DNA of 61,712 nt, counting the filler. It is 10 parts of 10 records of this genome, joined end to end, with 100 filler letters (N's around TTAATTAATTAA, not from the genome) between each part and the next. Parts side by side here need not be neighbours in the genome. Positions count along the whole stretch, not along the records: positions 33,017 to 38,288 come from SRR31147125_40747; 9 more parts are not named here. One strand, written 5' to 3'. This document shows positions 3,901 through 54,925 of the stretch, one piece after another. Made by a program: the position numbers and the translations under genes. How positions within the stretch are numbered: the stretch's first letter is position 1; each line of letters starts with the position of its first letter. Under the pieces are notes generated by a model. That model did no database searches and had not been told where the DNA came from. It saw only the letters and a list, made by a program, of their open reading frames with translations.

Positions 3901-6900
3901 CAAGTAAAGCAGAGTCAACACACAATGTTCTGTCTGCTCCGGCATTAGCCTCGGTTACCTGGTTATTAGTGATTAATACCGAATCATATCGGGAGCTATG
4001 ATTGGACGTACTTACTGTCCAAATTAACCAGTTCTCACCAAGCCCTAAATTAGATACTTTTGTTTTTGGATCATTTACATCTTCGAATGTAGCGCTTCCG
4101 TGATTTACTTTGATACTCCATTCTCCTTGACCAATGTTTGGTACAGTAGCATTCAGCTGGGTAGTATTTGCACATATAGTTTGATCGACTCCCGCTTCAG
4201 GATCCTCATCTAAAGTGTTGGTTATTGTTACTGTATCAGAAAGGCTACAACTACCTTTTGTAACAGTCCATACAAAAACATTGTCTCCTGAAACCAGATC
4301 TGTAACCTGCGATTTTGCGTCTGTCTTATCAGAAATGCTTCCTCCTCCATTGTATATTTTCCACAAACCGGATTCACCGCTTTTGGGAGATTCAGCATCT
4401 AGGTATGTTTGTACTGATTCTAATATTTGATCCACTCCTGCATCAGGTATTACAGGTAAATTGTTCGTTAATTTTACTGTATCTAAACTTCGGCAACTAT
4501 TATTTTCAACTACCCATGCAAATGTGTTTTCTCCTCTTCCTAAATAGAGAACTTCGCTATTGGGAGAATAATTATCAACAATGGTAGCAGAAGCATTAAT
4601 AAATTCCCAGTGACCTCCGGAGGTTGGGGTTACAGCTTGCAAGTTTGTTTTATTGGAACAAATAATCTGATCGTCACCGGCATCAATAGGAACAAGATTG
4701 TTGTATATATTAACCGTATCTGAGCTAGAGCATCCGTTGGCATCGCTAACTGTCCAAACAAAGATGTTATTTCCTTTTGCAATGCCTGTTACATTTGTGT
4801 TAGGCTGCGTAAAGTTACTAAATGAGGCAGCTCCATCATATAATGTCCAGGTTCCTGATTCACCAGCCGACAAACTGGTTGCAGCCATTGTTGTCTGCTC
4901 CGAACATATTTGCTGGTTGTCTCCGGCATAAGTGTACGGAGGGGTATTTACATTGACCACCTTACTGATAGCGCCTCCTGCACCACAATTATTCTCGCCG
5001 TATACGGAAATATTATCTGTAACTGAAAGCACACTAAAATCTACCACGATCTGGCGGGTATTTTGCCCTGAAATAATGGTTGCCCCAGTTGGTAATGTCC
5101 AAACATATGTAGTTGCACCCGGAATTGCATCAACTGAATAGGTTACTCCTGTTTCATTACTACAAACACTAGCTGCACCATTGATGGTTGCAGCATCATC
5201 AGGGACTTCGTTAACATTTATATAAAAGTTTGGTGAGACAGAACCTGTTCCACAACTGTTCTCAGCGTAGACAGTAATTATTCCATCTGTAGCTGTATTA
5301 TCCGTCTCAACAGTTATTGATTCGGAATTATCACCCGAAGTGATATTAAATCCTGAAGGTATCGACCAAATGTATTTCGTAGCGTTCGCAATTTGGGGTA
5401 CAGTATATGTCAACCCGGAAGACATTTGACAAACTACATCGTCTCCGGTTATGGCAAGGGCATCTTCGGGTAATGGGTTCATAATAATATTTACGTTGCT
5501 GCCCATTATCTTTTCGCACAAAGTAGAAGTATTATAAGCACGTACAGTATATGTCCCCGCTTCTGTTTGCAATCCAAAATCAATTGGAGAGCCTGTACCC
5601 GTTACATCAATAATCAAATCTGCTCCGTCTAACCAAAGTTCATACGTTATTCCGGTTTGAGAACCAGATAATCCAACAGATAATCCGCCAGTACCTTCAC
5701 AATATGTACCACCACCAGTAACAGTGTGTTCTGTAGGTGTTTCAATAATATCAATTGTTGCGGTTTCGTGAGGACTCTCACATCCGTTTACCGATTGGGT
5801 AACATAATATGTAAAAGTACCAGGTACTGTTTGCGTAGGCTGAAAACTACTAGCTGTTGAAATAACAGAGCCTGATAGGTTCCTATACCATTTGATATTT
5901 ATCCCGGATACAGAAAAAGAGGGTATTATTTCGTTTTCGCAAGCGTCAAGATTAGCATCGACCAATACCGGGGCTGATGGAACAGATTTTATTGTATACG
6001 TGACGGCTTCTTTGCTACTTTCACATCCTTTGCTGTCTGTTTGTGAAGCAAAGTAAGTATAGGTTCCTGATGCTACATCTGTTGGAATATATGTGTTTCC
6101 TGAAGCTAAGTAGCTACCGCCTGAAGTATACCATTGTATGTTGTTTCCTATTGCATTCAAAGCTTGCCCTGCACTACCTTCACAAATAGAAGCATCTACT
6201 GTTACAGGATTATTGGGTAGGTCGTTAATGGTTAATGTTACTTCTTTGGGCATGCTAGTGCAGCCATTGCTTGCCGTTGATGTTGCATAATAGCTATGCA
6301 CTCCTGTGGCACTTTCTGTTGGGGTATATGAATTTCCTCCGGACAGGTAGCCTGTTAATGCGGAATTACTATACCATTTTACATCTGAGCCGGTTAATAC
6401 TGTAAATGCTGGATTTGCCGCCCCGTAACATACTTCCTCGTTATTGATGATAGGAGCGGAAGGCACTGTTTTATCTTCGGCAACAGTAACCGTGTATGTG
6501 GTATCACATCCATTATTAATATCAGTAATGATTAAAGAATAACCACCCGGTGCATCTACATTGGTGGCGTATGAATTAACGTTTGAAATATTGCCCAAAC
6601 CAGACCATGAATAAGTATAATCTGTATTTTGACTGGCAATTAAGGTTACAGAAGAGACAGAACACGTAATGTCCCCTGAAGGAGCAAACATGGTAATTGA
6701 AGGTGTAGACACGTTTTCGTTCACATAAACATTGGCAGAGGTAGCTGTACAGTTGTTATCCAGATTCTTTACGGTAAGAACATATATCCCTGCTTTATCA
6801 ACAATAGGTGTTTTTGTATTTGCATTAAAGATTGTACCACCACCTGAAGTATTCCATTGATAACTTACATTTGGATAGGTGGATGAACCATTAAGTTGCA

Positions 6901-7363
6901 CCGTTGGCGAACTACAAGTTATATCATTTGGAGAAATATCTACTGTAACATCAGGATATATTGTATCGATGGTTACCGTTACTGTAGATGAATTTGTGCA
7001 ATTATTACCTAAATCTGTAACAATTAAATTGTAATCTGCCGCTGCTGTTACTGTTGGGTTAGAAGTTGAAGCGCCAGAAGAAATTACTCCGCCAGGCCCG
7101 GCCGACCATGCGTATGATAGCGAAGAGCCGTCAACAGATGCTGCTGTAGCTTTCAGGCTTACCTGGGATACAGAACAGGTTAAGTCGTTAGGAGTATCTA
7201 TCTGGATAGATGGGGGTGTTATATTTTGCTCCACTGTTACGCCCCTTACGCTTGAGCATCCGTTATCGGTATTGGTTATGGTAACCACATACGTTCCGGG
7301 TTCATCTACTGTTGGATTTGTAATGTCGGTAGCTGATGTGAAATTACCATCTGATGTAGTCCA
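980..7363 (-). CDS. Giant Ig-like/PKD repeat surface protein with gliding-motility-associated (T9SS type B) C-terminal domain; 5' truncated
   Basis: At least 2102 aa, with the frame open to the contig edge (WTTSDGNF...). It has 13 AGx(D/N)-type repeats, other Cys-containing Ig repeats, PKD motifs (WDFGDG, WYFGDG) and a C-terminus FPEAFTPN...NDVF...GWDG...VYIY...GNVLLL. Confidence 0.9.
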   Translation of the reverse strand, partial: WTTSDGNFTSATDITNPTVDEPGTYVVTITNTDNGCSSVRGVTVEQNITPPSIQIDTPNDLTCSVSQVSLKATAASVDGSSLSYAWSAGPGGVISSGASTSNPTVTAAADYNLIVTDLGNNCTNSSTVTVTIDTIYPDVTVDISPNDITCSSPTVQLNGSSTYPNVSYQWNTSGGGTIFNANTKTPIVDKAGIYVLTVKNLDNNCTATSANVYVNENVSTPSITMFAPSGDITCSVSSVTLIASQNTDYTYSWSGLGNISNVNSYATNVDAPGGYSLIITDINNGCDTTYTVTVAEDKTVPSAPIINNEEVCYGAANPAFTVLTGSDVKWYSNSALTGYLSGGNSYTPTESATGVHSYYATSTASNGCTSMPKEVTLTINDLPNNPVTVDASICEGSAGQALNAIGNNIQWYTSGGSYLASGNTYIPTDVASGTYTYFASQTDSKGCESSKEAVTYTIKSVPSAPVLVDANLDACENEIIPSFSVSGINIKWYRNLSGSVISTASSFQPTQTVPGTFTYYVTQSVNGCESPHETATIDIIETPTEHTVTGGGTYCEGTGGLSVGLSGSQTGITYELWLDGADLIIDVTGTGSPIDFGLQTEAGTYTVRAYNTSTLCEKIMGSNVNIIMNPLPEDALAITGDDVVCQMSSGLTYTVPQIANATKYIWSIPSGFNITSGDNSESITVETDNTATDGIITVYAENSCGTGSVSPNFYINVNEVPDDAATINGAASVCSNETGVTYSVDAIPGATTYVWTLPTGATIISGQNTRQIVVDFSVLSVTDNISVYGENNCGAGGAISKVVNVNTPPYTYAGDNQQICSEQTTMAATSLSAGESGTWTLYDGAASFSNFTQPNTNVTGIAKGNNIFVWTVSDANGCSSSDTVNIYNNLVPIDAGDDQIICSNKTNLQAVTPTSGGHWEFINASATIVDNYSPNSEVLYLGRGENTFAWVVENNSCRSLDTVKLTNNLPVIPDAGVDQILESVQTYLDAESPKSGESGLWKIYNGGGSISDKTDAKSQVTDLVSGDNVFVWTVTKGSCSLSDTVTITNTLDEDPEAGVDQTICANTTQLNATVPNIGQGEWSIKVNHGSATFEDVNDPKTKVSNLGLGENWLIWTVSTSNHSSRYDSVLITNNQVTEANAGADRTLCVDSALLAANTPIYGAGKWTISGGSGNFNNETVPTAIIKNLSSGENVLKWTIINKTCSSEDYVTIINNTPTKANAGSDQTICKDSTVLLPNTPTVGNASWSVISGTGTFVGNTVTQLAPDTNIFLYTITQGSCYSNDIVNIINNKPTTPTAGYDKSLCVDTIKLQSNQPAEGTAIWSIINGTGTFDDKTNPNATVRNLASSLNIFRWTISKNGCIEHDEVKIYNNSVTADAGEDITLCEDEYELIAANNTIGIGTWSIVGASGANFEDKNAPNTIVTNLSNGANQLRWTVKQENCAAHDDIIVTSNKPTDAFAGVDRAVCSKEVILNGNTPVYGNGAWILMDGSGTFNDETNPNTTLTNLSVGKNLLRWTITQGECTSYDEVNITSNLPVNVSAGSDQVSCSDTAGLAANKATIGIGQWSIIKGSGSFVNANYHESVVRNLAKGENIFKWTVSSSDCSISDTVVITSTVPTSAYAGPNRILCADSSDLAGNTPLVGTGEWMLISGSAEFDSPNSPTSKVRGLALGENILRWTISKNGCYSYDELVLTNNLPSTPFAGYDEVLCIDSTQLYAAPPTRGIGNWSLVSGDAVIVEPYSNQTLAKNIDLGQNTFRWTITYNNCKLSDEVVITSNYEIANAGEDETVNNPSVQLIGNNPSSGIGEWKLTSGSGTIATPNSVETIVANLGSGANVFTWTITNGNCTTSDDISINYIETPVLGFEPSAIEGCPPVNIKFVNKTIGGSTYEWDFGDGTSSTENSPSHTYTEAGQYTVKLTAYATLGTSNILDTLITIHQNPLAIFEIAPDTVYIPDEHISCYNYSEGADSSIWYFGDGNSLTGYAPTYTYADEGSYNVGLKVISEKGCTDSLITYNAVNVKKRNDFFFPEAFTPNIGGSRGGSYSMNDRSNDVFYPIMVDGELIEFEMKIYSRLGVMVFSTKDINIGWDGYYKERLLPQDVYIYIVTGKYNSGKSFQRTGNVLLLLNE

Positions 7364-7463
7364 NNNNNNNNNNNNNNNNNNNNNNNNNNNNNNNNNNNNN
7401 NNNNNNNTTAATTAATTAANNNNNNNNNNNNNNNNNNNNNNNNNNNNNNNNNNNNNNNNNNNN
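7364..7463. other. Artificial contig spacer
   Basis: 100-bp N-run containing TTAATTAATTAA (stops in all frames). Identical spacers occur at 12796-12895, 18050-18149, 23208-23307, 32917-33016, 38289-38388, 43571-43670, 48727-48826 and 54782-54881. Confidence 0.99.
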
Positions 7464-8078
7464 AAAAGATTTTTGTTTTAATACTTCAAATGAAATACGC
7501 GATACTTCTTTAGGTTTTAAGTCTTTTCTTGCTAAAGGAAAACTTAGGATGCATAAAATCAAAGGATAAAATAAACCTAAAATTAAAAATGTTTGAGATA
7601 GTCCAATATGCGAAAGAAGTGATTCTATAATTGGAGCGAAAATAAGAGGAGAAAGTCCAAATCCAAGTAATGTGATACCTGTTAAAAAACCTAAGTGTTG
7701 ATGACTAAATTGTGCAATGACACGCAGAGGTAATGTATAAAGTATACCTATACCAATACCTATAAACACACCATAAGAAATCGTAAGCATGGTAATATTT
7801 TGACTAAAACTTGATAATATAAAGCCAAGAGAGATGCTGATCATACCAACTAAAGTCATTAAACTGGTTTTATATTTTTCAAATAAAACACCACTAAAAG
7901 CCATGGATATGGCATAAAATAATAATACAATCATAAATGGCAATCCACTTTGAGTTTTTGAAATATTGAAATAAGATTCAATATCTAATCTAAATAAAGA
8001 ATAACTATAAACGATACCTAAACAGATCATAAGTAATGTTGATAATAATACATAAACATATATGTTTTTTGTTTTCAT
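7464..8078 (-). CDS. MFS transporter, oxalate/formate antiporter (OFA)-like; 3' truncated
   Basis: Six hydrophobic helices; CLGIVYSYS, YGVFIGIGIGILY and GFLTGITLLGFGLS motifs. Confidence 0.8.
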
Positions 8079-8149
8079 AAATTCACCAGTTTCTATGTCG
8101 TATGTCTATTATTCCATAATTTCTTTTGAATATCAAACTATTTAACTAA

Positions 8150-8183
8150 AAAAGAAAAGGTGATATGGATAACATATCACCTA
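8150..8183 (-). terminator. Intrinsic terminator after gpmI
   Basis: Perfect stem AGGTGATATG / CATATCACCT followed by a T-rich tract on the minus strand. Confidence 0.75.
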
Positions 8184-8199
8184 TAAGTTTATATCAATA

Positions 8200-9732
8200 T
8201 TATTTATTTGATATTAAAGAATGACCAGTCATTTCTTTTGGTTGTTCAACGCCTAAAATATCAAGTAATGTTGGTGCAACATCACATAAAGCACCAGTAC
8301 CAACTAAAACATTAGGATCTGTTACGATAACAGGAACTAAGTTTGTTGTATGTGCTGTATGAGGGTTTCCGTTTTCATTAACCATTTTTTCAGCATTACC
8401 ATGATCTGCAATAATGATTGCAACACCGCCGATAGATTCAATGGCTTCAACAACATCTTTGGTACATGTATCAACAGTTTCAACAGCGATTCTAGCTGCT
8501 TCAACTGAACCTGTATGACCAACCATATCAGGATTAGCAAAGTTTAAGATCATTGTGTCAAATTCTCCTGATTTAATCGCTGCAACAGCTTTGTCTCTCA
8601 CTTCAAATGCACTCATTTCTGGTTTTAAATCATAAGTAGCAACTTTAGGTGATTGTACTAAGATACGTTGAGCACCTTTAAAGTTTTGTTCTTGTCCACC
8701 ATCAAAGAAGAAGGTAACATGTGCATATTTTTCAGTTTCTGCAATTCTCAGTTGTCTAAGTCCTGCATTTGCGATAACTTCACCATAAATCTTATCAAGT
8801 TTTTGTAATGGGAAAGCAATAGGACCTTTAACTGTTGCATTGTAATGCATCATAGAAACTAAGAAAATATTTTTTACCGCTTTTGAAGGATCAAATACTG
8901 GTTTTCCTTCTGTGACATAAGCTTTAGGTCCTTCAATTGGATTAGAAAAAGCAGTTGCGATTCTAATTGCTCTATCTGGTCTAAAGTTTGCAACAATGAC
9001 TGCATCATTATCACGAACTAATCCATCTTTATTTGCAACAAAAGGTATAATGAATTCATCTGTAACATCTTGATCATATGCATTTTGAATACCATCAAGT
9101 GGGTTACTAAACTGAGCGCCAGTACCCAATGTCATATTATCATAAGCTTTTTGAAGACGATCCCAGTTATTATCTCTATCCATCGCATAATAACGACCTG
9201 AAACAGTTGCAACTTGAACACCAGCATCAATTAAATCTTTTAAGAATCCTTTACCAGATTTTTGAGGTGTATCTCTACCATCCATAAATGCATGTAGCCA
9301 AGGATTTAGTCCTTTTGATTTTGCTAAATCATTAAGTGCTTTAATATGTGTCGGGTATGCATGAACGCCACCGTTTGAAACAAGTCCAAAAATATGTAAT
9401 TTTGAATTATTTTTCTTAACATAATCAATCGCATCTAAAAATGCTTTGTTTTCAAAGAAGTCTCCATCTTTGATTGATTTATTAATACGTGTAAGTGATT
9501 GATAAACGACACGTCCAGCACCTAAGTTTAAGTGACCAACTTCACTATTACCCATTTGTCCTTCAGGTAGTCCCACCGCTTCACCACTTGCTTGTAGTGT
9601 ATTGTTTGGATATTTTTTAAATGCTTCATCTAAAAATGGTTTTTTTGCAAGTGAAACAGCATTAGAATCACTTGCTGGGGCTAATCCGTAGCCATCCATA
9701 ATAATTAAACCAGCAAATCTTTTTTTGTTCAT
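8200..9732 (-). CDS. gpmI: 2,3-bisphosphoglycerate-independent phosphoglycerate mutase
   Basis: Motifs IMDGYG, QMGNSEVGH, DGRD, AETEKYAHVTFFF, NPDMVGH, ADHGNAE. Start set at ATG 9732, behind an AAGGAG ribosome-binding site. Confidence 0.97.
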   Translation of the reverse strand: MNKKRFAGLIIMDGYGLAPASDSNAVSLAKKPFLDEAFKKYPNNTLQASGEAVGLPEGQMGNSEVGHLNLGAGRVVYQSLTRINKSIKDGDFFENKAFLDAIDYVKKNNSKLHIFGLVSNGGVHAYPTHIKALNDLAKSKGLNPWLHAFMDGRDTPQKSGKGFLKDLIDAGVQVATVSGRYYAMDRDNNWDRLQKAYDNMTLGTGAQFSNPLDGIQNAYDQDVTDEFIIPFVANKDGLVRDNDAVIVANFRPDRAIRIATAFSNPIEGPKAYVTEGKPVFDPSKAVKNIFLVSMMHYNATVKGPIAFPLQKLDKIYGEVIANAGLRQLRIAETEKYAHVTFFFDGGQEQNFKGAQRILVQSPKVATYDLKPEMSAFEVRDKAVAAIKSGEFDTMILNFANPDMVGHTGSVEAARIAVETVDTCTKDVVEAIESIGGVAIIIADHGNAEKMVNENGNPHTAHTTNLVPVIVTDPNVLVGTGALCDVAPTLLDILGVEQPKEMTGHSLISNK

Positions 9733-9884
9733 AGTCTTACTCCTTATCGTGATTTTCAACTATATTATAACGCAATATCATTAACTTTAAAGTTAATAGA
9801 CAAAAAAAACGTTTTCAAATTGACAAAAATATTGCCAAATATCATAATTGTGTTACAATATGTTTGTAATTTAATATATTTATA

Positions 9885-9995
9885 AAATGCTTCGGGGCAA
9901 CGTGAAAATCGTGACCGGCGGTGATAGTCCGCGAGCCAATTGGCAGGAACTTGTGCAATTCAAGTACCGACAGTATAGTCTGGATGGAAGAAGTG
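9885..9995 (+). ncRNA. FMN riboswitch (RFN element)
   Basis: Matches the consensus CTTCGGGGCA..GTGAAA..GACCGGCGGT..AGTCCGCGAG..CCGACAGTATAGTCTGGATGGAAGAAG and sits upstream of a RibU-like gene. Confidence 0.95.
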
Positions 9996-10020
9996 AAAGT
10001 CATTTTTTGACGTTCTTTTT

Positions 10021-12795: not shown

Positions 12796-12895
12796 NNNNN
12801 NNNNNNNNNNNNNNNNNNNNNNNNNNNNNNNNNNNNNNNTTAATTAATTAANNNNNNNNNNNNNNNNNNNNNNNNNNNNNNNNNNNNNNNNNNNN

Positions 12896-18020: not shown

Positions 18021-18275
18021 CAGACCGTCGATAAAGGGCACAAATGCAANNNNNNNNNNNNNNNNNNNNNNNNNNNNNNNNNNNNNNNNNNNNTTAATTA
18101 ATTAANNNNNNNNNNNNNNNNNNNNNNNNNNNNNNNNNNNNNNNNNNNNGAATTTCACCTGTATATCTGCGAGATTCCGTACCACCTGCATGAATCATTG
18201 GCTATACAACATGTATCACAGAATACGTTTTTCACGTCACTTTTTTTGCTCACTGAAGCTCTGCTATCTTAAATT

Positions 18276-23207: not shown

Positions 23208-23336
23208 NNNNNNNNNNNNNNNNNNNNNNNNNNNNNNNNNNNNNNNNNNNNTTAATTAATTAANNNNNNNNNNNNNNNNNNNNNNNNNNNNNNNNNNNNN
23301 NNNNNNNCCCCCTCAAGGTGGAGGGAACAATAGAAA

Positions 23337-32916: not shown

Positions 32917-33016
32917 NNNNNNNNNNNNNNNNNNNNNNNNNNNNNNNNNNNNNNNNNNNNTTAATTAATTAANNNNNNNNNNNNNNNNNNNNNNNNNNNN
33001 NNNNNNNNNNNNNNNN

Positions 33017-33193
33017 ACTCAACTACCAAAAAGCTATAAATCGGCTTTAAACATTAATGATAATTTCGTTGAACCTGCTGATTCGGAAAACATCAAAATA
33101 ATTGAGCATAATGTGAATGAGGGGAAAATAATTATGGTGAATAAACTGGCAACATTAGAAAACTGGAAAGAATTAGCAAATAGTTTTAATTAA
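33017..33193 (+). CDS. 3' fragment of a hypothetical protein
   Basis: Open frame from the contig edge, TQLPKSYK...ELANSFN-stop; no recognisable motif. Confidence 0.4.
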   Translation, partial: TQLPKSYKSALNINDNFVEPADSENIKIIEHNVNEGKIIMVNKLATLENWKELANSFN

Positions 33194-33497
33194 AACAAGT
33201 TTTATTGGCGGAGTTTAGATTCATAATTTTGATTCGTTTATAGTTTATATTGCATTTGGCCAAATGTTTATATTTTATGCAATTAAGGTTTTTAAACATT
33301 TTTATGTAACGCTTCGCCAATAATTTTTTATGTGTTGGTTTCATAGTAAAATGAATTGAAAAAGAATACGTAAATGGCTTATTGTGTCAACAGTAATCTT
33401 TATTATTGCTTAGCAATTTTTAATTAATTTTATTTTTTTGCTGACTGGTGTCTTTACAATTCTAAAAGGCATGAAAATGTGATTTAGCAGATAATTT

Positions 33498-35921
33498 ATG
33501 TTATATCGAATTAAGGTTATAATTACACTTCTGTTTGTGATAAATTCAATTTTATTTTCACAACCAGATATCCAGTTTGTTAATTATACCCAGGATGATG
33601 GTTTATCTCAAAATTCAATTTATACAATTCTTCAGGATTTTAGAGGTTTTATGTGGTTTGGTACCCAAAACGGATTAAACCGGTATGATGGTATTTCTTT
33701 TAAAACATATTATAATATTCCGGGAGATACTGTCAGTTTAAGAAATAATATAATTACCTGTTTGCATGAGGATGGCAAAAATAATCTTTGGATTGGTACC
33801 ATGGGAGGTGGATTGCACCGGTATAACAGGAGCGAAGATAATTTTGTAAATTATGATCTTAACCTCGAGAAAAATGTTATTCGCTGTATATTCGAAGATT
33901 CCAACCAAAATTTATGGATTGGTACAAATAGCGGGTTGGTTTTATTTAAATACGAAGTAGAGGGATATATAAAATATTCATACAACCCCGATAATATTTT
34001 TGGTATCTCAGGAAATTATATAAATGCCATAGTGGAAGATAATTATGGTTCTATCTGGCTTGCCATTCAAAACACAGGGTTAGAGAAATTCGATATAAAC
34101 ACGCAGACTTTCAGGAATATAAATAAAATAACAAAGAATAATAAATCCTTTAATATTAGAGATATAAACACTCTTTTCTATGATGGTAATAATACTGTTT
34201 GGATAGGTACAATTAACAATGGACTTATAAAATTTAATCCAGCTACTTATGAATTTACCGCTATACCATATTCAATAAGTGGGCATATGCCAGATAAATT
34301 AGGTCATTATAATGTATCAAAGATAATTTCAGACACTAATGATGCTTTATGGGTTGGTACAATGGGAGGGGGCGTTTCGCATTATGATTTAATTGAAAAA
34401 CGTTTTAAGCACTATGTACATCACAAATCATTAAAAACAAGCCTAACCAAAAACTCAATTAATACATTATTCAGTGATAAAAATGGAAATTTGTGGATTG
34501 GTACGGAGAGTGGGGGCATAAATTTTTATGATAAAAGCCGAAAAAAGTTTCACTTAATTTCTCATCTTCCGGAAGATAAAAATAGCTTAAATACCAATTC
34601 GGTATTGAGCATTGAAGAAGCCAACGACGGAAGTATATGGTTTGGACTGGATGAAGGCGGTATATCAAGATATGATGTAGGTAAGAAAGAGTTTGAACAA
34701 TATATGCCAGAAAATGGTGTGTCGGGTCTGTCTCACCACGTAATAATTGATGTATTTGAAGATGCCGACAAAAATATGTGGATTGTTCCTGCTGGTAGGG
34801 GATTGGATTTATTTAACCCGGCAACAAGAACTTTTCGTAATTTCAGAAATGTTAATTATCCTGATCCATCAAATTCGGTCCGAGTTATTTATGAAGACAC
34901 GGATAACCTTCTATGGGCTGGGACAAATGGCAATGGTCTTGCTTTGTTTGATCGCGATACAAAAAAATACATCACGTATTACGTTAACAATCCAAAAGAT
35001 AGGAATACGTTAAGTAACAATGATGTTACTGATATCATAGAAGATAGCATCGGGAATATTTGGGTTGGTACCTGGGGCGGACTTAATAAGTTTAATAAAG
35101 ACAAAGAAAACTTTGTTAGCTACATACAGGACTATAGTAGTCCCACAAGTATCTCAAACAACGAAATTACGTGTCTTTTTATTGATAGTAAAAGTAATCT
35201 TTGGATAGGTACATACGGGGGATTAAACAAATATGTGAAAGAGATTGATGGATTTAAGACTTTTAGTCAAAATATAAACCTGCCAAATAATGTTGTCTGT
35301 GCCATTGAAGAAGATAATACAGGTAACCTTTGGGTAAGTACTTATAAAGGCCTTTCAAAATTTAACCCTGAAACAAATCAGGTAATAAACTATGATGAAC
35401 GTGATGGATTGCAGGATAATATATTTAATCTTAGATCATCGCATAAAACTAAAGACGGGACAATGTATTTTGGGGGGATAAACGGGGCAACCTATTTTTA
35501 TCCCGATAGCATAAAAGAATCGCAGATTCGCTCTGAAATTACATTTACCGGATTTAAAATATTTAATAAACAGGTTAATGTTGCTGATGAAGGTTCGCCT
35601 TTGAAAAATAATATTTGGGAAACCGAATATATTAAGCTGAAATACAACCAGTCTTCATTCTCTTTTGAATTTGTAGAGCTAAATTTTTCAACATCGGCAA
35701 AAATAGATTTTAAATATATACTGGAGAATTATAACCAGGATTGGATTGTTACTAAGCAACAAGAAGCAAGTTTTACCAATGTGCCACCTGGTAATTATTC
35801 TTTTAAATTAACATTAAACAATCCTGGAGAAAATCTAGAAGTTCCTGTTCGTAATATCTATATCGAAATCACACCACCTTTTTGGCAATCCTGGTGGTTT
35901 AGGTATTGGTGGCTTCAATAA
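33498..35921 (+). CDS. Periplasmic beta-propeller (Reg_prop) + Y_Y_Y sensor; N-terminal part of a frameshifted gene
   Basis: DGLSQNSI..ILQD..GFMWFGT, about 14 LWIGT-type blades, FTNVPPGNYSF (Y_Y_Y) and ITPPFWQSWWFR immediately before the expected TM helix. Confidence 0.88.
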   Translation: MLYRIKVIITLLFVINSILFSQPDIQFVNYTQDDGLSQNSIYTILQDFRGFMWFGTQNGLNRYDGISFKTYYNIPGDTVSLRNNIITCLHEDGKNNLWIGTMGGGLHRYNRSEDNFVNYDLNLEKNVIRCIFEDSNQNLWIGTNSGLVLFKYEVEGYIKYSYNPDNIFGISGNYINAIVEDNYGSIWLAIQNTGLEKFDINTQTFRNINKITKNNKSFNIRDINTLFYDGNNTVWIGTINNGLIKFNPATYEFTAIPYSISGHMPDKLGHYNVSKIISDTNDALWVGTMGGGVSHYDLIEKRFKHYVHHKSLKTSLTKNSINTLFSDKNGNLWIGTESGGINFYDKSRKKFHLISHLPEDKNSLNTNSVLSIEEANDGSIWFGLDEGGISRYDVGKKEFEQYMPENGVSGLSHHVIIDVFEDADKNMWIVPAGRGLDLFNPATRTFRNFRNVNYPDPSNSVRVIYEDTDNLLWAGTNGNGLALFDRDTKKYITYYVNNPKDRNTLSNNDVTDIIEDSIGNIWVGTWGGLNKFNKDKENFVSYIQDYSSPTSISNNEITCLFIDSKSNLWIGTYGGLNKYVKEIDGFKTFSQNINLPNNVVCAIEEDNTGNLWVSTYKGLSKFNPETNQVINYDERDGLQDNIFNLRSSHKTKDGTMYFGGINGATYFYPDSIKESQIRSEITFTGFKIFNKQVNVADEGSPLKNNIWETEYIKLKYNQSSFSFEFVELNFSTSAKIDFKYILENYNQDWIVTKQQEASFTNVPPGNYSFKLTLNNPGENLEVPVRNIYIEITPPFWQSWWFRYWWLQ

Positions 35922-36685
35922 TTATAATATCAGTATTTTCTTTACACTGGTTGAGGATTTACAAAATCAAAAAGCAAAATGAAAAACTTGATGCATTAGT
36001 TAAAAAAAGAACGAAGCAGTTGCATGAGGAAAAAGAAAAAGTTGAAGAGCATGCCACATCATTAAAGAAAGCAAATGTTGAGATACTTCATAAAAATATA
36101 CATTTAGAATTTCAAAAAGAGGAGATACAGGAACATACCAAACAAATAGAGAAAATGAACAAGCTCTTGCAGATGAGGTATGAGGATCTTCAAAAAAATG
36201 TTGATGAAATTTCAAAAGCCCGTGTAATGCAAAAAAGGGTCAGCTACGAAGAATTTTGTAAGATTTATCCAGATGATGAGTCATGCATTCAATTTATCAG
36301 GGAGTTAAAAGTTAACACGCTCTTTTCGTGCAGAAAATGCCAACATACCGAATACTCAGAACAGGAAGGTACTTTTTTAAGACGGTGCAAAAAATGTGGA
36401 TACCGTGAACCTGTTACACTCAATACAATTTTCTACAGGCTAAAGTTCCCCATTGTTAAGGCATTCTATATTTTATACCTAGTAAGCATGGGACGCGAAC
36501 TTACAATAGATGAAATTTCGCAATTGGTATTGCTTCGCAGGGAAACTTGTTGGACATTTAAAAATAAGGTGATTGAAGTAATGAAAACCAGGAAACGATT
36601 TAAGAATCCGAAAGAAGGTTGGAAAGAGCTAATAATCTTACCGGCTTCAATGAATAAGAAAGCAGCACAAACAAAAGATAGGTAA
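35903..36685 (+). CDS. C-terminal part of the same sensor: TM helix, coiled coil, IS1595-like Zn-ribbon/HTH domain
   Basis: The -1 frame continues VLVASIIIISVF (TM), then LDALVKKRTKQL (coiled coil), then YPDDESC..CRKC..CKKC..VTLNTIFYRLKFP..ISQLVLLRRETCWTFKNKV. Confidence 0.8.
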   Translation, partial: VLVASIIIISVFSLHWLRIYKIKKQNEKLDALVKKRTKQLHEEKEKVEEHATSLKKANVEILHKNIHLEFQKEEIQEHTKQIEKMNKLLQMRYEDLQKNVDEISKARVMQKRVSYEEFCKIYPDDESCIQFIRELKVNTLFSCRKCQHTEYSEQEGTFLRRCKKCGYREPVTLNTIFYRLKFPIVKAFYILYLVSMGRELTIDEISQLVLLRRETCWTFKNKVIEVMKTRKRFKNPKEGWKELIILPASMNKKAAQTKDR

Positions 36686-36760
36686 AGTGTTTGATTCGTT
36701 TGATGTTGAAATTTCAATTAGACAACAACGTCAATCGGCAAAAAATAGAATGCAGAAGGA

Positions 36761-37132
36761 TTACTTTACATATTTATTTATTGCTTCAACCAACTCTTCT
36801 TTTTCAAAAGGTTTTTGAAAACATCCTTTTATTAGATCTTCGTTAAGGGCATTTTCTATTTCTTTTGATACATCAAAACCTGTTAGTATAAAGTAGGAAA
36901 TTGCAGGTGCAATCTTAATTGCTTCCTTAATAAATTCAACACCACTCAATTTTGGCATCCTCATGTCGCTAACAACTGCGTCAATATTATTGTTGTTGCG
37001 CATAAATTCAAGACTTTCTACCGGAGATTCAAATGTTACTATTTTGAACTCATTATTAAACATTGCTTCAAAGAGCATGAGATTTATAGGTTCATCATCA
37101 ACGTACAGGATGGATATTTGATTTTGTTCCAA
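36761..37132 (-). CDS. Stand-alone response regulator receiver protein
   Basis: YVDDE, SDMRMP, ILTG, FQKP. Confidence 0.9.
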   Translation of the reverse strand: MEQNQISILYVDDEPINLMLFEAMFNNEFKIVTFESPVESLEFMRNNNNIDAVVSDMRMPKLSGVEFIKEAIKIAPAISYFILTGFDVSKEIENALNEDLIKGCFQKPFEKEELVEAINKYVK

Positions 37133-37230
37133 TGATTTTTATTTTGACACAAAAATTATAAAAAATTTAGATACTACAATACGAAAAAGCATTAAAATGG
37201 TTAATTAGCGGTATGGCTAAAAAAAATCGA

Positions 37231-37555
37231 CTAAACTGTAATTAGTTTTTCTCCTGATTTTAAATATGTTGTTAATGGTTCACCTAAATAACGCACATCA
37301 ATACCTAATTTCAAAAGTTTATCTGTAGCACCCAGATTATCACAGCAATCTTTACATGCTTCAATATTAACTCCAAGATTTTGCATTTCTTTAATTTCAG
37401 TTTGAACCTGGCCGTCCGTTGCAACTATTCTTGCTGATGCACCCCAGATAATAACATTAACTTCTTCCCACCAATTATGCCTTTTGGAGTATCGCTATCA
37501 TATTGAAAATTGTATCCTTATCGGTTGTTGTCCAGAGAATATTAAGCTTGTTCAT
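37231..37555 (-). pseudogene. DsrE-family protein, frameshifted
   Basis: Manual translation: MNKLNILWTTTDKDTIFNMIA, then a second frame SKRHNWWEEVNVIIWGASAR...IEACKDCCDNLG...KLITV-stop. The span is 325 nt, not a multiple of 3. Confidence 0.75.
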
Positions 37556-37711
37556 GTTTTATGTTTAATAACTGTTTGCAAAATAAGAGTTTAATTTTTC
37601 TAACCGGTTGCAAATGTTAAAAAAAACACAAAATTGTTTAGTCTTAAATCAATTGTGTTAAACAAGTGTTTAAACTCAGAATTGAATATTTAAAAACTTA
37701 AATTTTTAAAA

Positions 37712-38275
37712 ATGAAAACGATTAAAATTTTATTGGTACTAGCTCTATTTTCTATTGGAGGAATTTTAAATGCACAGCAAATAAATCTTGGAAAATCGAA
37801 TATAAAATGGACTGGAAACAAGGTTGGAGGCAGCCATTATGGTAAAATTAAGATTAAAAGTGGATCTTTAGAAGTTAGCGATAATTCTATTTCAAGTGGC
37901 AAATTTACTGTAGACATGACTTCAATTACCAATGATGATTTAGATAATGCAAATTTCAACAAAAAGCTTGTTGATCATTTAAAGTCTGAAGATTTTTTTG
38001 GAGTAGAAAAATATCCTGAGTCTAATTTTGTGGTTACAAAAAGTACAAAGTTTTCAGGGGGCAAAGCAACCGTAACCGGCAAACTTACCATTAAGGGAAA
38101 AACAGAGGTAATTTCTTTTGATGTTATGAAAAAAAGCAGCACTGAATATTCGGCAAAAATTGAAATAGACAGATCAAAATTTGATGTTAGATATGGTTCA
38201 AAAACTTTCTTCAACGATATAGGAGATAAAGCGATTGACGATATCTTTATTCTAGAGGTTAAGATTGTAATCTAA
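37712..38275 (+). CDS. YceI family periplasmic protein
   Basis: SNIKWTGNKV, HLKSEDFF, GKLTIKG, IDRSKFDVRYGS. Confidence 0.92.
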   Translation: MKTIKILLVLALFSIGGILNAQQINLGKSNIKWTGNKVGGSHYGKIKIKSGSLEVSDNSISSGKFTVDMTSITNDDLDNANFNKKLVDHLKSEDFFGVEKYPESNFVVTKSTKFSGGKATVTGKLTIKGKTEVISFDVMKKSSTEYSAKIEIDRSKFDVRYGSKTFFNDIGDKAIDDIFILEVKIVI

Positions 38276-38390
38276 TTAACATAAAAAANNNNNNNNNNNN
38301 NNNNNNNNNNNNNNNNNNNNNNNNNNNNNNNNTTAATTAATTAANNNNNNNNNNNNNNNNNNNNNNNNNNNNNNNNNNNNNNNNNNNNAT

Positions 38391-39844: not shown

Positions 39845-41914
39845 CTAGTCACATGGTACAAATGATATCGCACAACCACCACCTGATGCCAATTTTATTG
39901 ATATATCAGAGCGGTGATTAACTTTAATCGTATCAATACTGTAATCATATGGATTATCATCCCAATGTGCATTCATTCCATCCGAGTAGATGATAGCTTT
40001 GTATTTCTTACCTTTATCCAGAAAATTGCAGTTAATATCTATTTTTCGGGATTCTTCATTCGAAATGCTACCCAGGAACCAATTGTCAGAATCGCGTTCT
40101 TTTCGGACGATCGTGACATATTCGCCAACCTCGCCATTGAGAACATGAGATTCTTCCCAATCAACAGCAACATCACGAATGAATTGAAAGGCAGGGTGGC
40201 CGTCATAGTTCTCGATAAGATCCGGAACCATTTGAATGGGACTATACAATACTACATAAAGTGCAAGCTGATGAGCTAAGGTCGTATTTATTTGATTATT
40301 AGGTTTATGTGGCTTTAGTTTAATATCAAAAACACCGGGCGTGAAATCAATGGGACCGGCTAACATGCGCGTAAATGCGATGGTTGGTAAATGATTGGGA
40401 GGATTACCGCCATCCGAAGACCATGCATTAAATTCCTGACCGCGTAAACCTTCTCTGGAAATTGCATTCGGGTAGGTTCTGCGAATACCGGTGGCTTTAA
40501 TGGGTTCATGCGCGTTGATGGCAATATTATATTTTGCGGCGGTTTCTATTACTTTTCTGTAATGTTTGACCATCCATTGACCGTGATGATAATAACCTTT
40601 AGGTTGAATTTTACCCACATATCCCGTTTTAACGGCCGATATGCCCAAATCGTTCATAAGTGCATAGGCAGTGTCCAATTGTTGCTCGTAAGTCCTTGGA
40701 GCGGCCGAGGTTTCGTGATGCATAATGATCTCTACACCTTTGCTCTTGCCATAAGCAACAACTTCTTCCAGGTCATAATCGGGGTAGGGCGTTACAAAAT
40801 CGAAAACACCTTCACGGTCAAAATCGCCAAACCAATGCTCCCAACCGGTGTTCCAGCCCTCGACAAGCAAAGCGCCAATTCCATTTTCAGCGCAAAAATC
40901 AATGTATTCTTTAGCATATTCCGTTGTAGCACCATGTCTACCGCTCGCCATATCCCATGATTTGGTCCCGATATGCATGTCCCACCAGATTCCCATGTAT
41001 TTTGTCGGTTCAAACCAGGAAACATCAATCTTAGCCGCTTCATTAAGGTTGACGATCAGGTTCGATTCGATCAGATCTCCCGCTTTTTCAGCTAGTTGGA
41101 TCGTTCTCCATGGAGTTTTAAAGGGAGTTGAGATCTTAGCCTTAATATTATCAAAATCACCTACCAGCTCTGAACTCATGCTTAAATTAACTGTATCGAT
41201 CTTTAATGTCATGCCGGGATAATCCGTCAGATTTGCTTCATGAAAACTAAGATAATAACCATCTTCGCTCTTCATCGTTACGGGTGTATTGACCGCATTA
41301 TAAGGGATATACGATTGAGCTAAGGAAGCATGGCTTCTGTAATATAAAGCATTGATCTGACTTAATTTTGTGTTTTTATATAGGTGCTCGTAAATATCCC
41401 AATCACCGGGGATCCACCAGACTTCATGATCATTTTTCAAGTTAAATTCGGTGTTCTCATCAAGGATGACAAGATCTTTCAGATCTTCATGCTCAGGCAA
41501 AATATAACGAAAACCAAGCCCGTCATTATAAACCTTGAATTCTACGATTAGTTCTCTAAACGGCGCTTCGACCTCTTTAAAGGTAACTGCCATCCCATTG
41601 TAATTATCTTTAACAATTTTTTGCTCGCCCCATGGCATTTCCCAGTCTTCATCGCGCTGTAATGTATATTCCCGTTCCTTAACCTTGAATTTTCCAAATG
41701 GAATTGTTTCGGTACTGAATTCAAATCCTAATTTTGATGTATCAATGACCGTTTTACCATGATATTTGACCATATAGTAGGGAATACCATCCTCTGTAAC
41801 ATCTGCGCGCAAAACTATCTTGTTATCGGGAGAACCGATCCTTTTAAATGATAATATTGAGCAGGAATACAGCAATAATGCCAAGAGTAAAAGAATTAAC
41901 ACAGACTTTTTCAT
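39845..41914 (-). CDS. Glycoside hydrolase family 97 (SusB-like alpha-glucosidase), lipoprotein
   Basis: KYMGIWW, LLVEGWN, MHHET, NAHE, REGLRGQE, FTRMLAGPIDFTPG. Confidence 0.93.
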   Translation of the reverse strand: MKKSVLILLLLALLLYSCSILSFKRIGSPDNKIVLRADVTEDGIPYYMVKYHGKTVIDTSKLGFEFSTETIPFGKFKVKEREYTLQRDEDWEMPWGEQKIVKDNYNGMAVTFKEVEAPFRELIVEFKVYNDGLGFRYILPEHEDLKDLVILDENTEFNLKNDHEVWWIPGDWDIYEHLYKNTKLSQINALYYRSHASLAQSYIPYNAVNTPVTMKSEDGYYLSFHEANLTDYPGMTLKIDTVNLSMSSELVGDFDNIKAKISTPFKTPWRTIQLAEKAGDLIESNLIVNLNEAAKIDVSWFEPTKYMGIWWDMHIGTKSWDMASGRHGATTEYAKEYIDFCAENGIGALLVEGWNTGWEHWFGDFDREGVFDFVTPYPDYDLEEVVAYGKSKGVEIIMHHETSAAPRTYEQQLDTAYALMNDLGISAVKTGYVGKIQPKGYYHHGQWMVKHYRKVIETAAKYNIAINAHEPIKATGIRRTYPNAISREGLRGQEFNAWSSDGGNPPNHLPTIAFTRMLAGPIDFTPGVFDIKLKPHKPNNQINTTLAHQLALYVVLYSPIQMVPDLIENYDGHPAFQFIRDVAVDWEESHVLNGEVGEYVTIVRKERDSDNWFLGSISNEESRKIDINCNFLDKGKKYKAIIYSDGMNAHWDDNPYDYSIDTIKVNHRSDISIKLASGGGCAISFVPCD

Positions 41915-41937
41915 AAAACTTCCTTGTTTAGATATAA

Positions 41938-43545
41938 CTACTTTAAATATAGTAGTTTATAAGATGTGCTTGAGTTACTGATACTAAAATTCAAGATATA
42001 TACACCGGATGAAAGTTGTGTGGGTCTCCATTCAATTTCATAGTGTCCGGAATTCAAGTGTTTCTTTAGAATATCTGCAATTTTAACACCTTCAAGCGAA
42101 TAAATTGATATTTGAGCCATAGCATTTTCATAAATGTTAAAGCTGATTCTGGTTTCAGGATTAAAAGGATTCGGATATATACCATTAAATTTGAAGCTAA
42201 TATCTTCAACCAGATCTTCTTCCTCAACGGTGATCTCTTTAACTTCAGAAACCGAAATGGTCCCTGAATAAGAAATATCTTTCAATCTATAGAAATACTT
42301 TGTTCCGGGACGAACATTCGTATCCTGAAATTCATAGGAGAACTCTTCACTTGTCGTTCCTTCACCCGGAGTGCTGTATATGATCTTCCAGTCCTCGTTT
42401 TCTTGCTTTTTTTCCAAAACAAAGGATGCATTTTCTGTTTGACTTGCGGTCACCCAGTTGATAATTACTGATCCCATATCATGATTCAGGTTAAATTTGG
42501 ATAATTCAATGTCTGTTGAAGCATCGCTCATGGTCGAAACGATTTGAATATCTGTCCAGGGTTCGGTATTGATATTTTCTCCATCGTAATGCCCCTTAAC
42601 CCTGAAATAGTAAGTCCCGGGGTCAACATTATCAAGTACTAAATAATCTGTTTCAACATCATAAATAGGAAAACCGCTCAATGACGCGGAAAAACTTGTA
42701 TCAATAGATACATCCACACAATAGGAATCAAAATCTGGAGAGGAAACCCAAGGAAGCACAAAACGGTCAAAGGTAATATCATAAGGTTGTATGGCGGCTA
42801 GATGTGAATAGGACAGTTGCCATGAAGAATCTGTCATATTTTCCAGCTTTCCATGATTCAAATTCAGGCTTGAATCGATCAAAACAGAATCTGCTTCCTG
42901 ATCGAAGGTATAATAACCTTGTAATCCCATAGCGTCATTACTGATGGTTTTATTAATGTTCTCTCTGATCTCTTCTCTGGTCCTGACAACCGACCAGAAA
43001 CGCACATCATCAAGTTGTCCTTTTATAGCTCTTAAAAAAGGATAGTCATAATAGGCGCCCAACATCACACCATAAGGTCTGAATGTTTCCGGATATTCAA
43101 GGTATATGTAACAATCTGCTTTTTTTACAACTTGACCGTTAAGATATGCAACTACATTTTCATCGTTTTTGTATTTATCATACGATACAGCGAGATGATA
43201 CCAAATATTCTCTTTAATATCTTCCAACTGCATTTCAAAGCTTTTATCAAAATTACCCATTTTGATAGCGATGCGATTACTATCCATAGTAAAAATTCCG
43301 TAACCAAAAAAATAATCTTCATGTAAATTTTTGGTTGTAAAATCGATCAAAGCTGCTGAATCAATAAACTCGGAAATATTAAACCAGCACTCCAAGGTGA
43401 ACCGATTCGAGAATTCCAAAGGATCATCCTCAATATAGACATAATCGTCAACATCCTCAAAAACGAGACAATTGGAAGGAGATTCAGCAAAAAGTAATGC
43501 GGTTAATACAATAATAAACGCTATGATGTATCTTAAATGCTTCAT
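41938..43545 (-). CDS. Secreted LamG-like jellyroll + FN3-like protein with T9SS-A/FlgD-like C-terminal sorting domain
   Basis: FTLECW, WYHLAVSYD, GQLDDVRFWS; C-terminal YPNPFNPET...LSSGVY...KLLYLK. Confidence 0.82.
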   Translation of the reverse strand: MKHLRYIIAFIIVLTALLFAESPSNCLVFEDVDDYVYIEDDPLEFSNRFTLECWFNISEFIDSAALIDFTTKNLHEDYFFGYGIFTMDSNRIAIKMGNFDKSFEMQLEDIKENIWYHLAVSYDKYKNDENVVAYLNGQVVKKADCYIYLEYPETFRPYGVMLGAYYDYPFLRAIKGQLDDVRFWSVVRTREEIRENINKTISNDAMGLQGYYTFDQEADSVLIDSSLNLNHGKLENMTDSSWQLSYSHLAAIQPYDITFDRFVLPWVSSPDFDSYCVDVSIDTSFSASLSGFPIYDVETDYLVLDNVDPGTYYFRVKGHYDGENINTEPWTDIQIVSTMSDASTDIELSKFNLNHDMGSVIINWVTASQTENASFVLEKKQENEDWKIIYSTPGEGTTSEEFSYEFQDTNVRPGTKYFYRLKDISYSGTISVSEVKEITVEEEDLVEDISFKFNGIYPNPFNPETRISFNIYENAMAQISIYSLEGVKIADILKKHLNSGHYEIEWRPTQLSSGVYILNFSISNSSTSYKLLYLK

Positions 43546-43670
43546 AAAACCTATGTTACTAATGTTAAATNNNNNNNNNNNNNNNNNNNNNNNNNNNNNN
43601 NNNNNNNNNNNNNNTTAATTAATTAANNNNNNNNNNNNNNNNNNNNNNNNNNNNNNNNNNNNNNNNNNNN

Positions 43671-48685: not shown

Positions 48686-48826
48686 GGATTATTAAGGAAA
48701 ATGACCCAAAAGAATATGAGCAGGGGNNNNNNNNNNNNNNNNNNNNNNNNNNNNNNNNNNNNNNNNNNNNTTAATTAATTAANNNNNNNNNNNNNNNNNN
48801 NNNNNNNNNNNNNNNNNNNNNNNNNN

Positions 48827-54781: not shown

Positions 54782-54925
54782 NNNNNNNNNNNNNNNNNNN
54801 NNNNNNNNNNNNNNNNNNNNNNNNNTTAATTAATTAANNNNNNNNNNNNNNNNNNNNNNNNNNNNNNNNNNNNNNNNNNNNATCAATCTATTTTCAATCT
54901 CTTATCAATCTTAAAACAAATAAAT

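Follow-up and report, generated by a model that had tools for sequence, protein, structure and literature searches.

The control of polysaccharide utilization in Bacteroidota is usually ascribed to hybrid two-component systems (HTCS), SusR-like regulators, extracytoplasmic function (ECF) sigma/anti-sigma factors and, very recently, BguR-type proteins. In the HTCS of Bacteroides, a Reg_prop/Y_Y_Y sensor is followed by HisKA, HATPase, receiver (REC), and AraC domains. Other membrane proteins relevant here are the 7TMR-DISM receptors (PF07695/PF07696), of the LadS/RetS kinase type, and the ToxR/CadC-type proteins, which are membrane-bound one-component regulators. Here we describe a gene at positions 33498-36685 (+) of a 61,712-nucleotide stretch of DNA (the window), which is made of 10 parts from 10 records joined with 100-letter N filler in between, and in which neighbouring parts need not be neighbours in the genome; the gene lies within the part 33,017-38,288 (SRR31147125_40747). 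It combines a Reg_prop/Y_Y_Y sensor with a C-terminal tail resembling the DNA-binding part of IS1595 transposases, and it belongs to a large family of Bacteroidota sensors in which, most likely, an IS1595 head domesticated once acts as the output of a one-component regulator of glycan utilization.

The closest studied analogue is BguR of Formosa agariphila, in which two propellers and a Y_Y_Y domain are followed by one transmembrane (TM) segment, a helical linker, and a GerE helix-turn-helix (HTH), with no phosphorelay (bioRxiv 10.64898/2026.01.10.698779). The deletion of bguR abolishes growth on laminarin, wild-type cells induce the locus more than 80-fold, and BguR is presented as an activator of transcription, for which a putative motif lies upstream (bioRxiv 10.64898/2026.01.10.698779). 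BguR and the family described here are alike in the tandem propeller with Y_Y_Y, the single TM segment, the helical linker, and the C-terminal domain, putative in the family, for DNA binding, as well as in the absence of HisKA, HATPase, or receiver domains and the restriction to Bacteroidota. As to the position beside a glycan-utilization locus, which BguR has, the family gives a mixed picture, with direct adjacency to a carbohydrate cluster in 39/79 relatives and housekeeping neighbours in the window. The output differs, being a GerE/LuxR-type HTH (PF00196) in BguR and an IS1595-like Zn ribbon plus HTH here, and our family also uses 7TM-DISM and PAS sensors. The pairing of a Reg_prop/Y_Y_Y, 7TM-DISM, or PAS sensor with a transposase-derived head follows the plan of BguR with a different output. 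The genetic evidence is BguR's; the present family is described from sequences and structure models. The words transposase, zinc, IS1595, and 7TM have no occurrences in the portion of the BguR text considered (bioRxiv 10.64898/2026.01.10.698779), and in the literature we found no description of a sensor fused to an IS1595 head; the supplement of the preprint might list related regulators.

We consider it rather likely, with reservations that are weighed below, that the intact gene (1062 codons) encodes a membrane-spanning one-component transcription regulator that carries a domesticated IS1595 head and controls glycan genes. The periplasmic double beta-propeller with Y_Y_Y would sense a ligand, most likely a glycan fragment, and the membrane helix would run on as a rigid cytoplasmic helix of ~90 residues, ending in a basic Zn-ribbon and HTH head. 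This head would derive from an IS1595-family transposase, whose N-terminal DNA-binding part was domesticated while the DDE catalytic domain was lost. Ligand binding would rearrange the helical stalks, probably those of a dimer, and the heads would then bind operator repeats near the promoters of carbohydrate-utilization genes, so that transcription would be controlled without a phosphorelay, by analogy with what was genetically shown for BguR and its GerE output. The direction of regulation would be activation, the family probably switching on polysaccharide-degrading genes directly. Of this picture, the analysis shows the architecture, the homology to the transposase head, its single origin, the breadth of the family, and the carbohydrate genes around the relatives; binding to DNA, dimerization, ligand, and direction of regulation are inferred.

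The gene is a single one, split over two overlapping frames, 33498..35921 (807 aa) and 35906..36685 (259 aa). What we call the tail is the 157 aa at the C-terminal end of the second open reading frame (ORF). Its features, along the window, are:

33498..35903 (+): periplasmic sensor part, in frame 1, with a hydrophobic leader, Reg_prop blades, Y_Y_Y, and PPFW...WWFR
35682..35834 (+): Y_Y_Y (PF07495), frame 1 residues 729-779, E 4.3e-9, score 36.6 bits (cut-off 26.6)
35901..35903 (+): frameshift site, where a G run is one base shorter than in the intact allele, by comparison with a public contig
35906..36232 (+): membrane helix and long cytoplasmic helical linker, frame 2 residues 1-109
36269..36403 (+): IS1595-type Zn ribbon, frame 2 residues 122-166, with Cys 142, 145, 161, and 164 (PF12760, profile positions 1-45 of 46)
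36452..36589 (+): HTH region of three helices carrying the FPIxKAF and LRRETCW motifs, frame 2 residues 183-228 (NF033547, hhalign, and structural model)
36590..36685 (+): basic C-terminal extension with a conserved GW..L, then the stop, with no DDE domain after it

The initial annotation, made from the letters alone, had read a Reg_prop, Y_Y_Y, and PPFW periplasmic sensor followed by a TM segment and a coiled coil; Pfam confirmed the sensor domains, and AlphaFold2 models one long helix after them. Reg_prop matches the first ORF in 12 stretches (E 1.6e-63), as for a double beta-propeller, and the ORF ends with the juxtamembrane PPFW...WWFR motif. The first ~17 residues of the second ORF are hydrophobic. 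In the AlphaFold2 model of this 259-aa ORF (pLDDT 91.8, built with 60 sequences), a single unbroken helix spans the membrane helix and the linker (residues 2-109), of which ~90 residues are cytoplasmic; after it come a hinge (110-113), a pair of short helices, a ribbon of three strands (150-169), and another three helices (183-228). The linker can be aligned with the homologues of both sensor types, Y_Y_Y and 7TM-DISM. The prediction of a homodimer (two copies of residues 22-259) had a score of 0.00 and was used neither for nor against dimerization.

The sensor domain of the window shares 30-45% identity with its nearest relatives, whose outputs are mostly kinase, GGDEF, SpoIIE, sigma54-AAA+, Ser/Thr-kinase, or cyclase domains, and the IS1595-type tail is present on 3 of the top 120. 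Since the relatives carry so many outputs and the tail occurs on so few of them, the sensor is a promiscuous module and the tail one more output for it. HTCS proteins are also among these relatives (32-39% identity), and they share with the window protein the periplasmic sensor module and the logic of a membrane-tethered DNA-binding protein. HTCS proteins contain kinase, receiver, and AraC domains, whereas in the window HisKA, HATPase_c, receiver, and AraC had no Pfam match in either ORF at E<=1, and GerE (PF00196) had none in either ORF. The sensor-tail protein is therefore not an HTCS, and its signal must pass mechanically through the helix rather than by phosphotransfer. The 7TMR-DISM receptors have their sensor module in common with part of the family, whereas the window protein uses Reg_prop/Y_Y_Y, and their output is a kinase, cyclase, or phosphatase in place of a transposase-derived head. 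The ToxR/CadC-type regulators are similar in being anchored to the membrane and in binding DNA directly, as the family would, while sensing outside the cytoplasm. They differ in the opposite topology and in the DNA-binding fold, without any sequence relationship; here the sensor is N-terminal and the putative DNA-binding domain C-terminal.

The evidence on the nature of the tail comes from several comparisons. Taken individually, the window tail matches the Pfam Zn_ribbon_IS1595 profile (PF12760) over positions 1-45 of 46 (E 5.1e-5, 23.6 bits, cut-off 25.4), and its residues 180-231 match positions 3-56 of the 215 of the NCBIfam IS1595 transposase profile NF033547 (E 0.0023). By BLASTP, residues 14-127 of the 157-aa tail align with residues 5-120 of a Flammeovirga aprica transposase with PF12760 and PF12762 (P0241; E 5e-11, 26% identity over 116 residues). 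The hhalign comparison of a profile of 53 tails with one of 27 transposases gave a probability of 98.8% (E 6e-17, 122 columns); the alignment takes in the Zn ribbon and the HTH and stops at transposase residue 123, directly before the DDE domain. PF12760 is matched individually by 52/53 family tails, and the first 53-62 positions of NF033547 match the tails of sensor-length ORFs in four of the five genomes searched with this profile. The four Zn-ribbon cysteines are invariant (60/60 and 53/53 sequences), as is W239 in the C-terminal extension. In the model, the ribbon strands are residues 150-152, 158-161, and 167-169 and the HTH helices 183-194, 201-208, and 212-228; in fold, the HTH region weakly resembles homeodomain-like and other HTH proteins that bind DNA (Z 3.2-3.7, VIA-align). 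The window tail has a net charge of +15 and an isoelectric point (pI) of 9.66 (family medians, +9 and 9.3) and is 37-70% identical to the 52 other tails. We regard the BLASTP, profile-profile, and family-wide comparisons as decisive for homology of the tail to the entire N-terminal Zn-ribbon and HTH region of IS1595 transposases, as the initial annotation had proposed.

The N-terminal helix, the four-Cys ribbon, and the three-helix HTH of IS1595 transposases thus have counterparts in the tail over ~120 residues. The tail differs from these transposases in the lack of a DDE domain and of terminal inverted repeats (IRs), in its C-terminal fusion, in being single-copy, and in being under purifying selection. 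In the window gene, Pfam found no match to the DDE domain (PF12762), and no IRs like those of an insertion sequence (IS) were found in 35900-37200, where the repeat search returned just three weak A/T-rich pairs of 14-17 nt; both absences had been noted in the initial annotation. Across the family, the protein ends 65-87 aa past FPIxKAF in 76/76 tails, leaving no room for a DDE domain. Having neither a DDE domain nor IRs, the sensor-tail protein is not a transposase, and the tail is not a recent IS insertion.

The similarity to IS1595 transposases and the frameshift upstream of the tail in the window could also be read as a recent IS1595 insertion or an assembly chimera, with a tail that is not a functional output. 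Besides the missing DDE domain and IRs, the window holds one tail copy, and blastn of the tail against plasmids, and so against plasmid-borne elements, gave no match. The frameshift falls within the membrane helix, ~300 nt before the tail begins, rather than at a domain junction. Moreover, the tail and linker are conserved at 35-63% identity across hundreds of intact proteins of three architectures. We consider the chance of an insertion or chimera negligible, and the recruitment of a transposase DNA-binding module as the output of a sensor, which had been the central proposal for this gene, agrees with its conserved C-terminal position in the intact proteins.

Judging from sequence, the tail is the mark of a large, unstudied family of Bacteroidota sensors of the Reg_prop/Y_Y_Y, 7TM-DISM, and PAS types. 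The search for longer proteins with the 259-aa ORF gave 102 matches, all with the tail C-terminal. The Y_Y_Y type accounts for 65 of them, mostly of ~1030-1090 aa and from metagenome-assembled genomes (MAGs) of Bacteroidales and Prolixibacteraceae (best identity, 62%), and the 7TMR-DISM type for 37, of ~590-690 aa, from Echinicola, Belliella, Cyclobacterium, Flammeovirga, Marinoscillum, and others. The 7TM-DISM type was also evident from Pfam on 16 loci of ~600 aa, 15 of which have 7TMR-DISMED2 and 7TMR-DISM_7TM. The third architecture, apparently cytoplasmic, is a PAS-PAS-tail protein of 464 aa in a Chitinophagales MAG (L066:7326-8717, +). In GTDB, searched with one genome per species, at least 541 of the 602 candidate stretches were confirmed as family loci, the confirmed counts being lower bounds; several genomes have multiple paralogues, some of them four or five on different contigs. 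The profile search over 1.84 billion representatives gave 10,592 proteins at E<=1e-3, a number that drops to 3021 at E<=1e-10 and to 444 at E<=1e-30. Among the best 150 of these 10,592, all match at the C-terminus, and the lengths are 560-720 aa (94), >=960 aa (21), and <560 aa (35, mostly fragments).

The tabulation of the partner domains bears out the mention, in the initial annotation, of similar tails on Cytophagales 7TM-DISM proteins, and its suggestion of a wider family rather than a unique fusion. The outcomes that would have spoken for a chance resemblance or a young insertion were not observed, as a profile match exists, the tail is present on homologous sensors, and no active IS is near-identical to the segment, its nearest transposases being distant.

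L069 carries tandem 7TM-DISM-tail sensors (3608-5551 and 5544-7508), and L063 an apparent divergent sensor pair, seen from the ORF-cluster layout. In L014, the Reg_prop-type sensor is broken into four ORFs of 160, 460, 163, and 171 aa (~5600-8555), which suggests frameshifts or assembly errors; the Gammaproteobacteria label of this bin is doubtful because all its relatives are Bacteroidota.

The origin of the tails was investigated by scanning 401 Bacteroidota genomes with the tail profile, which had matches in 62. In nine of the matching genomes, the matches are sensor-length ORFs (603-718 aa, E<=2.5e-44), and most of the others are ORFs of ~300-340 aa, together with shorter or interrupted frames. 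Among twelve ORFs of ~300 aa subjected to Pfam, the nine from genomes other than G336 have PF12760 and a strong PF12762. The heads of the G336 paralogues (nine places, including L101-L103; ~306-339 aa) are the closest non-sensor relatives of the tails (E 1e-45 to 1e-48). Their DDE match is weak and partial (profile positions 25-153, E 1e-4 to 4e-8), and the region of the first Asp looks degenerate; these proteins may represent another case of domestication, in soluble form, or else an old IS in decay.

In the maximum likelihood tree of 74 heads, based on 147 columns (few for so many rows), all the 53 sensor tails form one clade (support 100/98), and their sister group is formed by the nine diverged G336 paralogues with degenerate DDE (98/90). 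Sensor tails and G336 paralogues share a larger clade (100/99) with four true transposases, L104, L106, L107, and L108, and this clade is in turn nested in the wider IS1595 diversity. As the midpoint root falls among the transposases and the sister groups bear DDE domains, the polarity would be from transposase to sensor, which is inferred from sequence and not proven. The 13 Reg_prop-type tails, including that of the window, form one clade (100/98) nested within the 7TM-DISM-type tails, and this nesting suggests that the linker and head moved as a module from a 7TM-DISM onto a Reg_prop/Y_Y_Y sensor. The copy in the window is a frameshifted member of the family inside this Reg_prop-type clade. 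If the reading is right, this is a clear bacterial case of the DNA-binding module of a mobile element turned into a signalling output, with its nearest living transposase relatives identified.

One of these closest true-transposase relatives looks active: L104:738-1758 is a complete IS of ~1 kb with 33-nt terminal IRs (88% complementary), and its genome (G112) contains several identical copies. Such close kinship would fit a head that has kept its transposon role and binds the ends of related IS1595 elements, coupling transposition or IS-driven promoters to an environmental signal. In the search of five genomes with NF033547, however, three (G002, G004, and G005) have no transposase above the cut-off, and G002 and G005 match this profile only through the tail of a sensor-length ORF. 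The repeat pairs found beside sensors (see below) lie upstream of glycan genes and not at IS ends. We judge a retained transposon role to be very improbable.

The reading as a glycan regulator draws on the gene neighbourhood of the relatives. The ORFs of 80 kept loci were clustered and the recurrent clusters named by Pfam; the sensor was called in 79 loci and the FPIxKAF motif found in 75 of the 80. A recurrent carbohydrate cluster is present in the flank of 57/79 loci, within two genes of the sensor in 53/79, and directly adjacent in 39/79. The clusters counted are the glycoside hydrolase (GH) families GH5, GH43, GH10, GH3, GH67, and GH97, rhamnosidase-like, cellulase-like, esterase, sulfatase, LamG, SusC-like, and SusD proteins; GH115, GH81, GH16/CBM6, GH20, and RhaT were found adjacent as singletons. 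The share of carbohydrate clusters among the neighbours is 0.24-0.40 at offsets 1-3 and lower beyond offset 4, where positions are less sampled. Culturable hosts with intact copies beside xylan-type genes (GH10, GH43, GH67, and esterase) include Belliella, Echinicola, Fulvivirga, and Flammeovirga. In Belliella pelovolcani DSM 46698, Echinicola pacifica DSM 19836, and Fulvivirga imtechensis AK7, the gene is next to GH10/GH43/GH67 or SusC/SusD genes. A widespread further class of regulators would follow from this reading, numbering hundreds of loci at the species level across Bacteroidales, Prolixibacteraceae, Cytophagales, and Chitinophagales.

A candidate operator was found in one Reg_prop-type subclade (L011-L014), namely direct pairs of the 14-mer ATTTAWCCGCCAAA with a spacing of 85-91 nt. 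Every pair is intergenic, co-oriented with the genes, and upstream of sensor-flanking genes. Pairs of the motif, including one in L121, have these positions:

L011: 2998/3083
L012: 8727/8812 and 3471/3562
L013: 7140/7225
L014: 1465/1552
L121: 8171/8258

In four genomes of 3.7-5.8 Mb, exact ATTTAWCCGCCAAA has 2, 3, 2, and 2 occurrences genome-wide, and the reversed control has 0. The sole site away from a sensor is also a pair, spaced by 87 nt, in which one copy is exact and the other has a single mismatch. An operon headed by an apiosidase-like hydrolase (GH) begins 111 nt downstream of this pair; the operon contains homologues (75% identity) of the sensor-adjacent genes, and a GH88-like gene and a sulfatase are beside it. 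A DNA-binding factor whose gene lies at the main site, and which acts in trans on a small regulon, would produce such a pattern; that the sensor is the factor acting on this candidate operator is not proven. With culturable hosts carrying intact copies and a concrete candidate operator in one subclade, the hypothesis is directly testable.

Two other words did not hold up. The core TTAA(G/C)CGC is just ~2-fold enriched near sensors (21 in 55.7 kb vs 9 in 51.7 kb), and a word of the TGTTTTTAAGCG type that precedes SusC in L071, L074, and L076 is a weak lead only.

Several observations weigh against a regulator of glycan genes. A recurrent carbohydrate cluster is missing from the flank of 22/79 loci, and the neighbour counts stand without a genome-wide baseline. 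The flanks of the window gene are housekeeping genes (Der GTPase and BrkB), with no polysaccharide utilization locus, and the nearest gene for a carbohydrate-active enzyme (CAZyme) in the window, a GH97, is ~3 kb off on the other strand. The 8-mer enrichment revealed no family-wide operator, the words found being A/T-rich and at the level of shuffled sequences; the closest subclade of the window has no shared 10-mers, and in the window no spaced direct-repeat pairs were found. The window sequence alone falls below the curated cut-offs of Pfam and NCBIfam. No PDB structure resembles the whole tail (Foldseek, nothing at E<=1e-3; best VIA Z 3.7); by sequence, the best PDB match is a ribosomal S27e ribbon (E 0.072), and two unnamed BFVD matches at E ~1e-5 are not interpretable. 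The HTH recognition region is near-invariant across paralogues, which is unexpected if their operators differ, and the copy in the window is itself frameshifted.

The near-invariance of FPIxKAF, LRRxTCW, and the putative recognition helix in 53 diverse tails, including paralogues of the same genome, would fit a head that is not a classical operator-binder and, as a partner-switch or tether, binds RNA polymerase, a sigma factor, RNA, or a DNA structure common to the paralogues. The lack of a family-wide motif and the full-length sigma-70 genes directly after the sensor in L022 and L027 point the same way. The same residues are nevertheless conserved in transposases that bind different IS ends, and they may be structural. 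Furthermore, the repeat pair of one subclade is genome-unique beside the sensor and also marks a second glycan operon, and the analogue BguR activates transcription and has a putative motif upstream. We find this alternative distinctly unlikely, and keep operator binding by the head as the preferred reading.

A broader reading goes further. The IS1595 head would have been domesticated once in Bacteroidota and shuffled as a portable output among at least three sensor types (7TM-DISM first, Reg_prop/Y_Y_Y and PAS later), giving phosphorelay-free glycan regulators. Their operators, which might descend from IS ends, would be pairs of direct repeats with a spacing of ~85 nt, and a dimer anchored in the membrane would bridge each pair with its two heads. 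As a whole, we hold this combination to be speculative and rather unlikely to be right in every part.

The frameshift of the window copy raises the question of whether the gene is functional. A TAG at 35900-35902 closes frame 2 upstream and a TAA at 35919-35921 closes frame 1, so the frame change lies between 35903 and 35919. Of the words sampled from 35300-36700, 80% are present in a public DNA run (X1). The X1 contig (3327 nt, depth 47.5) covers 35352-36700 at 99.3% identity and differs from the window by nine substitutions and one G inserted behind 35901. With this extra G, there is a single frame of 1062 codons, which matches the homologues across the membrane helix. Sensor and tail also form a single ORF in all 75 homologous loci with the motif. 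The two frames reported by the initial annotation are indeed present, and what had to be corrected is their interpretation, as they result from a G run one base shorter at 35901-35903. One of the nine substitutions replaces Leu with Ile; the other eight, all at third positions of codons in the second frame, are synonymous, which argues for purifying selection on the frame up to the very recent past. The split is either a homopolymer or assembly error or a very young inactivation.

The latter would make the gene a genuine pseudogene in the window organism, where the deletion is real and the sensor is not made as one protein. Coherently with this, the two frames have stops on both sides of 35903-35919, and the gene does not lie beside CAZyme or Sus genes, unlike most of its relatives; no decayed CAZyme or glycan genes were found upstream by tblastn, where the long spacer is partly N. 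The near-identical X1 contig with its extra G and intact frame speaks against a pseudogene, as does the selection seen in the synonymous substitutions, and errors in homopolymer length are a common assembly artefact. We regard the pseudogene as doubtful, though of all the alternatives the one to be taken most seriously, and the intact allele as the form to which the regulator reading applies.

In the layout of the window, the genes upstream of the sensor encode the Der GTPase, BrkB, and an SNF symporter, and those downstream a receiver, YceI, GH97, and a LamG protein of the type IX secretion system (T9SS). The next gene after the sensor, convergent with it, encodes a receiver-only response regulator of 123 aa (36761-37132, -; PF00072, E 4e-17). 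Small receivers also follow sensors in L022, L024, and L027, and are not found in the closest relatives of the window. The receiver at 36761-37132 was considered as a partner of the sensor and not linked to it, as this neighbour is not conserved in the closest relatives.

The GH97 and the LamG protein with a T9SS sorting tail (39845-43545, -) are the sole carbohydrate-related genes near the sensor in the window, and GH97 (cluster 10) recurs as a neighbour in five related loci.

Pairs of 44-N runs are present at 7364-7463, 12796-12895, 18050-18149, 23208-23307, 32917-33016, 38289-38388, 43571-43670, 48727-48826, and 54782-54881. One pair sits in the spacer upstream of the sensor, and another interrupts an RmlA-like gene, of which 43681-44277 matches profile positions 93-243 only. 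Their interpretation as scaffold gaps was dropped, as they are spaced ~5-6 kb (9.7 kb between two pairs) and mask-like in look. Finally, a flavin mononucleotide (FMN) riboswitch (RF00050, 99.9 bits) at 9884-9999 (+) is the sole Rfam match of the window.

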